From the NCBI GenBank assembly GCA_903850505.1, contig CAINLT010000094.1, forward strand, positions 2,016 through 66,015: a stretch of DNA of 64,000 bases, given 5' to 3'. This stretch comes from an uncultured Myxococcales bacterium. Its GTDB lineage: Bacteria > Myxococcota_A > UBA9042. This document shows positions 15,436-24,780 of this stretch, piece by piece. The position numbers and the translations under genes are program-made. A model generated the notes under the pieces. That model was given only the letters and a program-made list of their open reading frames with translations. It was not told the origin of the DNA and ran no database searches. Numbering within the stretch: position 1 is the stretch's first letter; the number at the start of each line of letters is the position of its first letter.

Positions 15436-15510
15436 GCGGGAGTAGCTCAATGGTAGAGCGTCAGCTTCCCAAGCTGAATGTTGCGGGTTCGAGTCCCGTT
15501 TCCCGCTCCA
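15436..15510 (+). tRNA. tRNA-Gly (anticodon CCC), 75 nt with encoded CCA
   Basis: A hand-folded cloverleaf fits. Acceptor GCGGGAG pairs with TTCCCGC, and the D arm is GCTC-AATGGTA-GAGC. The anticodon stem TCAGC/GCTGA carries loop TTCCCAA. The T arm is GCGGG-TTCGAGT-CCCGT, followed by discriminator T and CCA. Confidence 0.93.
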
Positions 15511-15561
15511 AATAATCAATAGGGTACGCGACAAACCGACCCAATGCCCCTGCCTGGGTGA

Positions 15562-16137
15562 CAACATTGTGCCGCAGGACTCCCATCCGCGCGCTGCAGC
15601 GACGGCGATCGGTGCACCATCGGCGACAAGTGCGCCGCGGGCGTGCGCGTGGCCGGCCAGGGGAACATCTGCGACTGCAAAATCGATGCCGACTGCGCGG
15701 TGCAGGGCAGCGCCGACCTGTGCGTGGCCAACCGCGTCTGTAGCGGCGACCAATGCGTCCTCGGAACGCCGCCAGCGCCTTGCCCGCAATCGCCGACGCG
15801 GTGCCAGGTCAACGCCTGCGATCCGGCCAGCGGTCAATGCGCGCTCGTTGCCGTCGACGACGGCTCGCCGTGCGTCGACGGCGACCCATGCACGAACGAC
15901 TTCTGCCTGCCCGCGTTCGGCTGCTACCACCCGTTCAACAGCGCGCCTGTGACCTCGTCGCTGCCCAAGTGTAAAAATCGTTCCGCGCAGTTCGCCGTCC
16001 TGTCGCATCGGCGCAATGCAGCGCCATCGCCGCGCATATTCCCCTTGCCGATGCACGCCATCCGCATTGACCAGTTGCCGCGCTATTGGCCGGCGACTAA
16101 GCTCGCGCTCGACGCGCCTTTTCGCGGATTTTTTTGA
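15562..16137 (+). pseudogene. 5'-truncated fragment of a Cys-rich CTxDxC-repeat gene abutting the tRNA
   Basis: The in-frame sequence begins right after a stop at 15559-15561. It reads CSDGDRCTIGDKCAAG...CDPASGQCALVAVDDGSPCVDGDPCTNDFCLPAFGCYHP, the same module as in the 21960, 28853 and 43067 genes. It has no signal peptide and no upstream coding continuation. The only in-frame start (GTG 15643) falls inside the repeat region. Confidence 0.5.
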
Positions 16138-16155
16138 CACGGCAAGGGAGACGGC

Positions 16156-17115
16156 ATGGCTCGAGTTCTGATTACCGGGGGATTTGGCACGATTGGCCGC
16201 TGGGTCGTCCGCGAAATGCAGGCGCAAAATCACGACGTGACGGTGCTGGAATTGGCCACGCCGCGCAATCGCAAAATAGCCCGCGAGTTCACGTCGATCC
16301 GCTTGATTTGGGGCGATTTGCGCGACGTCGCGGCTGTCGCTGACGCGGTGGCAGGGCAGGAGTACGTCGTGCATTTGGCGTGTATTCTCCCACCGCTGGC
16401 GGACACGGATCCGGATTTTGCCCAGACCGTGAATGTCGGCGGGACGCAGCACGTCATCGACGCCTGCCGCGCGCAGCCGATGCCGCCGCGACTGATTCAT
16501 GGGTCGTCGGGGGAGGTCTACGGCGCGACCCGGCACCTGGCGCCGCCACGGACGATTGACGAGGCGCGCATCGCGGTCAATCACTATTCCGCGCACAAAA
16601 TCGCCGCGGAAGAGCGGGTGCAAGCTTCCGGACTGGACCATGTCATCGTGCGTTTCAGCGCGGTGATCGACATTGCGCTGACCAATTCCCACCCGCTGAT
16701 GTTCGATTTTCCCGTCGACGTGCGCATGGAGCTCCTGCATGCCGCCGACGCTGCACTCGCCGTGACCAACTGCCTGCGCACCGAGGCGATTTGGGGCCGC
16801 GGCGCCATTCTGCCTCTGGCCGGCGGTGAGCGTTGTCGCACGACTTATGGCGATTTTCTGACGCGGATGCTGGAGACGCTGGGCGTGGGCGCGCTGCCCG
16901 CGGAGGCCTTCACGCGCGAAGATTACCCGTCCGACTGGCACGACACGCTGGAGTCGCAGACGCTGCTGCAGTACCAGCGCCATTCGCTCGATGATATTTG
17001 CGGCCAGGTCGGCGACCTGCTGGGCTGGCGGCGCTGGTTCCTGCCGCTCGCGCGGCCGTTTGTCCGGCGCTCGATCCTCAGCAAATCTGCGCATCTGCGG
17101 CAGCGCACCGCTTGA
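16156..17115 (+). CDS. NAD-dependent epimerase/dehydratase (extended SDR family)
   Basis: The Rossmann motif is VLITGGFGTIGRWV and the catalytic YxxxK is YSAHKIAAE. Confidence 0.85.
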   Translation: MARVLITGGFGTIGRWVVREMQAQNHDVTVLELATPRNRKIAREFTSIRLIWGDLRDVAAVADAVAGQEYVVHLACILPPLADTDPDFAQTVNVGGTQHVIDACRAQPMPPRLIHGSSGEVYGATRHLAPPRTIDEARIAVNHYSAHKIAAEERVQASGLDHVIVRFSAVIDIALTNSHPLMFDFPVDVRMELLHAADAALAVTNCLRTEAIWGRGAILPLAGGERCRTTYGDFLTRMLETLGVGALPAEAFTREDYPSDWHDTLESQTLLQYQRHSLDDICGQVGDLLGWRRWFLPLARPFVRRSILSKSAHLRQRTA

Positions 17116-17118
17116 CGA

Positions 17119-23411: not shown

Positions 23412-23742
23412 GTCCACGCTGGACGCCATGACGTCGTCGGGGGCGCCATGCCGCGGCCGCTGCGCCAGTGGCCGACTCCGAGACCGTGGATGACGCTGCA
23501 TAGCTGGCGCGCGACACGATGCGCGACGCGCGAACCGGTAGATTTGGGCAGCCACTTCGCACTGCGGGCACCGGTTGGTGGAGCTGGTGTAGGTGCCGAC
23601 CGGCTGGCAGCGGCTACAGGGGCGCGCGGCCGTTAGGATCGACAGATGGCGCGGAAAGCGGTGTGGCTGGATGCTGCGGTCTGACCCGCGGCGGTCCTTG
23701 CGCTGTACGGCATTGAGCCGTACACAAACCGTGGAGGTCACG

Positions 23743-24060
23743 ATGCAGCCAGCCCGCAAATCGCCACGAGTTCCTGCAGCCGCCACGCCGCGTACCGAGC
23801 GCTTGGAGGCCAGAATCTCTCCAGATCTGAAAGACTTGTACACGATGGCAGCCACAATGCGCGGCCAGACACTGACGGACTTCGTGGTCTCGACAGTGAC
23901 GGACGCCGCGCGCCGGATCGTCCGCGAGAGCGAGGTGCTGGAATGGAGCCGCCGCGACCAGCAGGCGTTTGCTGCTGCGCTGACGAACCCACCTGCACCG
24001 GCGTCCAAGCTGATGACAGCCGCAGCGTGGCCGCGTGACCAGGCCGGGACCAATGGCTGA
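23743..24060 (+). CDS. DUF1778-family (TacA-like, RHH) antitoxin
   Basis: GGAGG lies 6 nt upstream of ATG 23743. The motif ERLEARISPDLKDLYTMAATMRGQTLTDFVVSTVTDAARRIVRE matches the remembered DUF1778 pattern. The gene overlaps the GNAT gene by 8 nt. Confidence 0.8.
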   Translation: MQPARKSPRVPAAATPRTERLEARISPDLKDLYTMAATMRGQTLTDFVVSTVTDAARRIVRESEVLEWSRRDQQAFAAALTNPPAPASKLMTAAAWPRDQAGTNG

Positions 24061-24592
24061 GCCTCGCGGGTGTCTTTTTCGCATCGAAGCGTTGGATGTG
24101 CGGCATCGCCGCGAGCGCTTCGCCTCGGGCGTCGACGCGCTGGACCGCTACCTGGCGTCGCGGGCGGGGCAGGATACCAAGCGCGGCTTCGCCAGCGTTT
24201 TCGTGGCCGTGGAGATCGCGTCCGAGCGTGTCTGCGCCTTCTACACCCTGTCGATGGCGGGCGTAGCGGTGGACCTGCTGCCGGAGCGCCTGCAGCGCAA
24301 GATGCCTCGCTACCCGTCGGTTCCGGCGGTGCGACTGGGACGGTTGGCCGTCGCGGTCACCGACAAGGGCCGCGGGCTGGGCAAGTGGTTGCTGATGGAT
24401 GCGATGACGCGTTCGTTGGCCAGCGAAGTTGCCTGGGCCGCGTTCGTGGTCGACGTGAGGGACGAGACGGCGCGCTCGTTCTATCTGCAGTACAGCTTCC
24501 TGGCGCTGGCCGATGACCCGCTGCACCTCTTTCTGCCGCGTGCGACGGTCGACGCTGCCTTTGGGACAGACAGCGGGTCCAAGCGCCCCTGA
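24053..24592 (+). CDS. GNAT-family acetyltransferase toxin (TacT/AtaT/KacT-like)
   Basis: ATG 24053 overlaps the antitoxin stop (ATGGCTGA). The acetyl-CoA pocket context is LGRLAVAVTDKGRGLGKWLL. At 179 aa, the gene shows the classic pairing with DUF1778. Confidence 0.8.
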   Translation: MAEPRGCLFRIEALDVRHRRERFASGVDALDRYLASRAGQDTKRGFASVFVAVEIASERVCAFYTLSMAGVAVDLLPERLQRKMPRYPSVPAVRLGRLAVAVTDKGRGLGKWLLMDAMTRSLASEVAWAAFVVDVRDETARSFYLQYSFLALADDPLHLFLPRATVDAAFGTDSGSKRP

Positions 24593-24708
24593 AGGGTGGA
24601 CCGAGATTGCATTCCGCTCCAAGCTGACGCCCTGGCCTGAGGTGCTACATCAGGGACTACATTGCCCGTCGGACGGCGTCAGAGGGCGACGACCCGCAAC
24701 GCTAAGTC

Positions 24709-24780
24709 AGCTAAATGGTGGGCGGTTTGTGATCGGGAAAGTCTCAAGTCGCTGATTCCCAAATTGAATGTTGCGGATTC
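24709..24780 (+). repeat. Decayed partial second copy of tRNA-Gly(CCC): D-arm block and anticodon-to-T-stem block, a possible att-type remnant
   Basis: 24756-24780 (ttcccaaattgaatgttgcggattc) matches tRNA positions 15466-15490 at 22 of 25 nt. 24709-24724 (agctaaatggtgggcg) matches the D-arm 15444-15460 at 14 of 17 with one gap. Order and orientation are the same, but 26 extra nt separate the blocks and no foldable 3' end remains. Confidence 0.55.

Follow-up and report, generated by a model that had tools for sequence, protein, structure and literature searches.

Islands of the Islander type (PMC4383910) are bounded on one side by an intact tRNA gene and on the other by a direct repeat of its 3' part, the principle being that the regenerated tRNA gene and the displaced fragment mark the two ends of the island. 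The locus studied here lies in a stretch of 64,000 nucleotides (nt) of an uncultured freshwater Myxococcales bacterium (GenBank assembly GCA_903850505.1, contig CAINLT010000094.1), hereafter the window, in which an intact tRNA-Gly(CCC) gene is followed, 9.3 kb downstream, by a 25-nt block resembling part of it, hereafter the scar. Tandem or composite islands also form at single tRNA hot spots, an example being the multiple elements at one tRNA gene in enterobacteria. The anticodon loop and the T arm are the two classic sublocations that Williams, in 2002, reportedly distinguished among tRNA-targeting tyrosine integrases.

The locus resembles these systems in several respects. Indeed (i) the window contains an intact tRNA gene, a variable segment with a synteny break at the tRNA 3' end, and an identity block whose start is the first anticodon-loop base, as in the anticodon-loop class of tyrosine integrases, (ii) as for Islander islands, its relatives have tyrosine integrases adjoining the tRNA gene or copies of its attachment (att) sequence, tandem arrays at one tRNA and accessory cargo, and (iii) as in tandem islands at a single hot spot, several integrase and arm classes reuse one tRNA, new insertions pushing the older ones outward. 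Unlike Islander islands, the fragment in the window keeps only tRNA positions 31-55, the integrase is not inside the segment and the two ends come from different element types; as an internal junction of a decayed array, the scar would fail an Islander-type call. Unlike the tandem islands, the host is an uncultured freshwater Myxococcales and the window copy has been fully immobilised by deletions. We regard it as likely that two or more integrative elements once formed a tandem array at a tRNA-Gly(CCC) hot spot, that this array has decayed and that the scar is a junction in its interior, the 25-nt block being what survives, on the left, of the displaced att site of a tyrosine-integrase element inserted in tRNA-Gly(CCC). 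Related uncultured freshwater myxobacteria have fresh insertions at this tRNA. Features of this kind are well known, and the scar, a further case, involves no new mechanism.

The tRNA-Gly(CCC) gene and its probable displaced fragment

15436-15510, + strand: intact tRNA-Gly(CCC) gene, the integration target (ARAGORN; Rfam tRNA, 71.4 bits)
9775-15288, - strand: UvrA-like tandem-fusion gene, conserved left flank of the tRNA gene (UvrA motifs in the translation)
24756-24780, + strand: att remnant, tRNA-Gly(CCC) positions 31-55 (22/25 match)

The tRNA-Gly(CCC) gene is the sole tRNA gene found by ARAGORN in the window, and its positions 31-75 (15466-15510) are the att identity block of the relatives. 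These relatives are uncultured freshwater Myxococcales, all represented by fragmented metagenome-assembled genomes, of which five belong to the same genus (G001-G005). The UvrA-like gene and the tRNA gene are syntenic in G002, G003, G004 and G005, with 82-93% nucleotide identity, and in these genomes the homology stops at window positions 15512-15533, that is 2-23 nt past the tRNA. An open reading frame (ORF) of 2439 amino acids (aa) on the minus strand (9775-17094) spans both the UvrA-like gene and the tRNA gene; its portion over the tRNA and 15.3-17.1 kb is a high-GC artefact, and the UvrA-like fusion gene ends near 15288.

The scar (TTCCCAAATTGAATGTTGCGGATTC) matches 15466-15490 (TTCCCAAGCTGAATGTTGCGGGTTC) on the same strand at 22 of 25 positions, as had been reported in a preliminary description of the window, and it is the only match with at most 4 mismatches on either strand of the whole 5.56-Mb assembly (11 Mb counting both strands). 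The shuffling recommended in that description as a check of significance was carried out: the 20 kb following the tRNA were subjected to 100 dinucleotide shuffles, in which the best match to any 25-mer of the tRNA ranged from 17 to 20 of 25 (mean 17.9, standard deviation 0.67), and 22 of 25 was never reached. When the entire window is scanned with gaps allowed and tRNA positions 31-75 as the query, the scar scores 19 against a null maximum of 15, and no other match rises above the null that could represent a second att remnant at the outer end of the array. Since the match is unique in the assembly, lies beyond the shuffles and exceeds the null of the gapped scan, the 25-nt block is truly homologous to tRNA-Gly(CCC). 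Chance similarity, for which nothing speaks except the short length of the match, is excluded by the same figures, by the location of the block on the same strand 9.3 kb from the tRNA, and by its flanks, which are homologous to the att arms of relatives.

The scar starts with the first base of the anticodon loop (tRNA position 31), exactly as the 45-nt copies of the relatives do. Of the displaced 3' tRNA fragment only positions 31-55 have been kept, with other sequence in place of 56-75: downstream of 24780 there is no resemblance to tRNA positions 56-75 (p = 0.73).

Copies of the tRNA and integrases in related genomes

The five same-genus genomes were searched with the 75-nt tRNA. Perfect 45-nt copies that reach from the anticodon loop to CCA (positions 31-75) are present in four of the five (G003:C23:5639-5683; G004:C444:6856-6900; G005:C24:7424-7468; G002:C235:10958-11002), together with a copy of positions 27-75 (G004:C129:4682-4730). 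Shorter copies (50-75 or 53-75) in G001 and G005 constitute a second att class, which starts at position 50 or 53, within the T arm. In other genera of the family, 3' partial copies starting at positions 22-32 were found in six genomes. Integrases are encoded at G004:C373:8417-9679, 665 nt from the tRNA 3' end, at G005:C24:7521-8636, 53 nt past the att copy, and at G001:C134:5773-7002, near an att copy. The perfect 31-75 copies and the integrases near them support the earlier proposal that the 25-nt block is the att remnant of an integrase-mediated insertion; the proposal that the event is old also holds.

Furthermore, the ~100 nt that follow the tRNA or att copies on the right contain three classes of tandem direct repeat (GCCCTAGAA; GGGT(G)ACAACATT; GGGGGTCACA or ACTCACA), as read at loci L017, L020, L028, L022, L027, L023, L016 and L026. 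They are putative arm-type integrase binding sites, and the three repeat classes probably mark three element families competing for one tRNA; this genus thus combines three arm-repeat types with two att lengths. No complete element was seen end to end among these fragmented genomes, and Pfam searches of the cargo of their elements gave mostly no matches.

In the preliminary description, a D-arm-like block (24709-24724, compared with 15445-15461) and a '26-nt spacer' were also counted as parts of the repeat. The block exists with the 14 of 17 matches quoted if one gap is allowed, but its significance is weak: ungapped, 12 of 17 positions match (p ~0.08), and the gapped local score of 11 (p ~0.017) applies to a segment chosen post hoc. 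Nor does any relative corroborate it, the homologous arms of relatives having no similarity to tRNA positions 1-30 (p 0.5-1.0) and their perfect copies all starting at position 31, with one at 27. The att identity begins at position 31, and what precedes it belongs to the arm of the element itself and is homologous to the G005 arm; the D-arm-like block and the spacer lie outside the repeat. Both blocks could otherwise be read as the remains of a whole duplicated tRNA-Gly gene that decayed, without any att site, which would account for a D-arm-like block standing upstream in the right order and for its gapped p value. Such a gene is very unlikely, since the perfect copies of the congeners begin sharply at position 31 in the homologous place, the 31 nt separating the D-arm-like and anticodon blocks are homologous to the arm of the G005 element, no similarity to the acceptor stem or the T arm is seen, Rfam gives no tRNA-like match at the scar even at E up to 10, and no relative has a second intact tRNA-Gly(CCC) at this locus.

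Two element types joined at the scar

23593-24060, + strand: TacA (DUF1778) antitoxin gene (Pfam TacA1, E = 1e-22)
24035-24592, + strand: gene for a GNAT TacT-like toxin of 185 aa (PDB matches TacT, KacT and AtaT, E 1e-16 to 1e-11)
24623-24755, + strand: right arm (P arm) of an element, leading into the att core (alignment to the G005 arm)
24776-24800, + strand: internal sequence of a second element type, called type B, fused to the att remnant (match to G004:C129)
24842-24952, - strand: tyrosine integrase remnant, last 37 codons (tblastn with the G001:C134 integrase)
15511-15569, + strand: truncated type B arm (homology to the arms in G004:C129 and G001:C134)

To the left of the scar, the toxin-antitoxin pair recognised in the preliminary description was confirmed and consists of a TacA1 antitoxin (Pfam) and a GNAT TacT-like toxin; tacA is upstream of tacT, the genes overlap by 26 nt, and they are the final genes before the scar. 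This pair shares 88% nucleotide identity with G005:C24:6129-7113 (88-90% counting also G004:C129:1-945), and window 24623-24780 aligns to G005:C24:7292-7448 (68% over 165 nt), first along the arm and then along the att core. The G005 homology ends exactly at 24780, whereas the G005 copy continues perfectly to position 75. Since TacAT, the arm and the att core align to G005 up to 24780, the left part of the scar region is, on the strength of these alignments, the right end of a G005 TacAT-type element; the terminal 1.3 kb alone is common to the window segment and the G005 element.

The overlap of a TacA1 antitoxin gene with the gene of a 185-aa GNAT toxin is as in the TacAT, KacAT and AtaRT GNAT-DUF1778 type II modules (PDB 5fvj, 5xun, 6ajm; PMC9177977). 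Unlike these, the window pair is the terminal cargo of an island remnant, and its activity and tRNA specificity are putative. The exact TacT protein has no match in public assemblies. TacT homologues acetylate Gly-tRNA(Gly) (PMC9241777), and tacAT is directly upstream of a tRNA-Gly fragment both in the window and in G005, so that the fragment could be imagined as a functional tRNA-Gly-like RNA, a decoy or regulator for a glycyl-tRNA-acetylating TacT. We consider this extremely improbable: tacAT is directly upstream in only two of the ~10 att copies checked (the window scar and G005), the fragment has no acceptor stem and is not chargeable, the window copy is truncated compared with the G005 copy, which shows that it is not constrained, and the specificity of GNAT toxins is not readable from similarity (PMC9177977). 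In G004:C129, tacAT lies 3.7 kb upstream of the att copy, G002:C235 has only a distant TacT homologue 3.8 kb off, and the remaining checked loci show none. A general linkage of TacAT with att copies was rejected on the basis of this count. That the module may be tied functionally to the integration target, as a Gly-tRNA-acetylating toxin on an element that rebuilds tRNA-Gly, with the adjacent fragment possibly included in the toxin mRNA, is a slim prospect.

To the right of position 31-55 of the tRNA copy, the sequence belongs to another type of element. Window 24776-24800 (GATTCTGGGGACTGAGCATCAGTGG) matches G004:C129:4885-4909 at 22 of 25 positions by a hand count on the printed sequences; by BLAST, 24772-24800 matches G004:C129:4881-4909 (86% over 29 nt) and 24772-24796 matches G001:C134:4234-4258 (84% over 25 nt). 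In both relatives the matching type B sequence is located ~150 nt to the right of the att copy, with a small lipoprotein-like ORF shortly downstream of it. At the joint stands G(G/A)TTC, a microhomology of 4-5 nt which is present both at tRNA positions 51-55 and in the type B sequence, and this explains one of the three mismatches of the scar. As the sequence after 24780 matches type B internal sequence and the joint lies on a microhomology, the 3' 20 nt of the copy were cut off at the junction and not eroded; the copy is therefore not simply degenerate, as it had been called.

About 60 nt past the junction, 24842-24952 (- strand) encodes AEPMTQRHAGIRHEAKADALDRVRPSLAEAKGATETP, which shares 78% identity with residues 369-405 of an integrase of 409 aa that is intact in G001:C134 (tblastn, E = 9e-16); the RY of the catalytic motif reads RH in this stub. 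The strong match of the integrase remnant of G004:C129 begins at about the same residue, which is compatible with an old truncation shared by the two stubs. No PF00589 match was obtained on the window's contig, and the tRNA has no intact integrase beside it inside the segment. To the earlier statement that no intact integrase is present must be added this 37-codon remnant, which lies outside the segment and directly follows the scar on the right. G005 encodes a full-length integrase (L035, G005:C204, 4001-5418) that shares 70% identity with that of type B and whose end is 150 nt away from a tRNA-Arg(TCT) gene of the other strand; closely related members of the type B integrase family thus use different tRNA targets, and the family targets tRNA genes generally. 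A palindromic 46-nt sequence lies between the integrase stub and the following STAND gene (window 25101-25148) and is also found, in both orientations and with 89% identity, at G005:C24:4569-4634, upstream of a DUF4143/AAA_14 ATPase gene; it may be a common operator or terminator.

At the other end of the segment, 15511-15569 is 88-89% identical to G004:C129 4731-4789 and G001:C134 4082-4140, which are located to the right of att copies. The window arm keeps one GGGTGACAACATT repeat and breaks at 15569, whereas the G004:C129 and G001:C134 loci have two. Nucleotide homology to Cys-repeat paralogues begins ~20 nt past 15569, so that the left junction cuts both the element arm and a gene. In G001:C134, the type B arm is followed 1.6 kb further on by the integrase type of the window stub, and G004:C129 pairs the arm with a similar stub.

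Cargo between the tRNA and the scar

15570-16137, + strand: 3' fragment of a Cys-repeat protein gene (Pfam Dicty_CTDC repeat)
16156-21344: six-gene oxidoreductase cluster encoding an SDR/epimerase, a SnoaL protein, a protein of unknown type, an FAD amine oxidase, a Rieske KshA-like oxygenase and an SRPBCC protein (Pfam; NCBIfam weak)
21759-23411, + strand: Cys-repeat (Dicty_CTDC-like) protein gene (Pfam)

The bracketed 9.3 kb had been taken for accessory cargo, and this DNA is indeed variable, being missing at this locus in all five congeners. A DNA search of these genomes with 15511-23500 returned only Cys-repeat paralogues, the 59-nt arm and, in G004:C300, a rearranged version of three genes of the oxidoreductase cluster (67-73%), which is the only form of this cluster in the congeners. 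The alignment with close relatives suggested earlier thus confirmed that the interior is absent from them, but did not yield a true empty site. The weak NCBIfam matches of the oxidoreductase cluster are to sterol and hopanoid enzymes (SdmA, 52.7 bits for a cut-off of 600; HpnA; HpnE; SdmB), and the cluster may be a small lipid- or polycyclic-modifying pathway. A type B-like element of G004 (L023, G004:C444, 6856-11808) has a 1314-aa Cys-repeat gene between its att arm and its integrase, and members of the Cys-repeat family therefore travel as element cargo.

Of the composition profiles that had also been suggested, those of GC and tetranucleotides were calculated. The GC content of the 9.3-kb segment is 0.646, at the 5th percentile of the 9-kb windows of the genome (mean 0.667); that of the oxidoreductase cluster is 0.644 (~4th percentile of the 9-kb genome windows) and that of the UvrA gene is 0.686. 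The segment is accessory DNA of mildly atypical composition, as would fit an acquisition that is old or came from a close source.

These data bear on whether the segment is one old island, that is, whether a single element delivered 15511-24780, with the tRNA as attL, the scar as attR and an integrase lost later. The two direct repeats 9.3 kb apart, an interior missing from the congeners, its low GC content and a toxin-antitoxin module at the distal end, as in G005, would all be expected of such an element. We nevertheless consider it unlikely, since the left arm (15511-15569) is of type B, whose integrase type is represented by the stub beyond the scar on its right, whereas the right arm belongs to the TacAT type of G005, since an arm repeat as well as a Cys-repeat gene are interrupted at the left junction, and since the G005 element has no more than the terminal 1.3 kb in common with the segment. 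Instead of one clean island, the locus is a patchwork of at least two decayed elements, the left end of the segment being a truncated arm of a different type joined to a truncated Cys-repeat gene.

Proposed origin of the scar

Given the homologies, the junctions and the variability among congeners reported above, the decayed tandem array probably formed as follows. Such elements in this genus have a 45-nt stretch in common with the tRNA (positions 31-75, anticodon loop to CCA), and recombination rebuilds the tRNA proximally, leaving the old 31-75 piece as a distal direct repeat. In the window, this repeat ends the arm behind the TacA/TacT addiction module, as in G005; it has lost positions 56-75 and is joined, at the 4-5 nt microhomology, to type B internal sequence. 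The simplest route would be a deletion of ~175 nt from an arrangement like that of G004:C129 (att 31-75, type B arm, type B internal site). Illegitimate deletions would have removed the recombination machinery, so that the type B element is now represented only by parts of its arm and internal sequence and by an integrase stub, and the cargo at 15.6-24.6 kb and 25.3-28.7 kb is unable to excise; with no integrase and no complete att site, this cargo is fixed in place. The order of events may have been two or three successive tRNA integrations followed by deletions, or the insertion of one element into the other, which is less likely. Specifically, insertion of the TacAT element by its integrase into a secondary site within type B was judged less likely than a deletion at a microhomology, because an integrase of the anticodon-loop class should cross over near positions 31-37 and not at 55.

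Several observations weigh against a decayed array at this tRNA. No empty site was found in the five congeners, all of whose tRNA-Gly(CCC) sites are occupied, and in other genera of the family (G006, G008, G017, G031, G032) the tRNA gene does not adjoin UvrA, so that the pre-insertion state can only be deduced. There is no mobility gene inside 15.5-24.7 kb, and the left and right ends of the 9.3 kb belong to different element types; for these two reasons, delivery of the segment in a single event can be neither claimed nor demonstrated. Furthermore, the type B match at the scar is short (25-29 nt at 84-86% by BLAST), the tetranucleotide distance of the segment is at the 88th percentile, a mild deviation, and the Cys-repeat genes, which make up much of the cargo, resemble the genus's own repertoire.

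DNA to the right of the scar

25304-27181, + strand: STAND NTPase gene (Pfam)
27280-28323, + strand: NTP_transf_8 nucleotidyltransferase (NTase) gene (Pfam)
28384-28668, + strand: gene for an XRE helix-turn-helix (HTH) protein (Pfam)
28670 onward, + strand: giant Cys-rich operon

As an alternative, the preliminary description had placed the accessory DNA to the right of the scar, and this also proved correct, alongside the accessory left side. The STAND and NTase genes (25187-28307) follow the perfect 31-75 copy in G003:C23, the nearest relative, with 84% identity, and the NTase and HTH genes are inside the island of G004:C129, where they are joined directly to TacAT. At that locus (L022, 1-2227), 43 nt separate TacAT from the NTase/HTH genes, and G004 is without an equivalent of window 24588-27210, which comprises the arm, the scar, the integrase stub and the STAND gene. 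These modules are shuffled among the islands of the genus.

The STAND protein was not found in 28 of the 30 relatives searched. Its homologue in G003 (L016:6417-8291) is encoded by a longer frame (792 aa) and aligns from the same Met with 81% identity and no gaps. An N-terminal truncation of the STAND protein by the deletion that formed the scar was rejected on the basis of this alignment, and since there is no N-terminal truncation relative to G003, the lack of an effector domain is genuine.

In G003:C23, the NTase gene is followed within 0.9 kb by a homologue of 46254-48160, then by 56905-57322, then by 57493-64000. Because G003 passes from the NTase gene to the homologue of 46254 within 0.9 kb, the giant operon (28308-46253) and 48161-56904 (8.7 kb) are insertions or deletions relative to G003. 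Homologues of the giant operon, with 66-74% identity, are encoded elsewhere in congeners (G001:C29, G002:C198, G003:C4).

Significance

The scar is useful mainly for the annotation of the window and for reading its remainder. Between 15.5 kb and at least 28.7 kb the DNA is accessory, derives from mobile elements and is no longer able to excise, and the region up to ~57 kb is patchy relative to the nearest relative; the presence here of the STAND/NTase/HTH patch and of the giant Cys-rich operon is not ancestral to the genus. The tRNA-Gly(CCC) gene serves as an integration hot spot in this genus, which consists of uncultured freshwater Myxococcales, and the att block is defined as tRNA positions 31-75, with a second class at positions 50/53-75.

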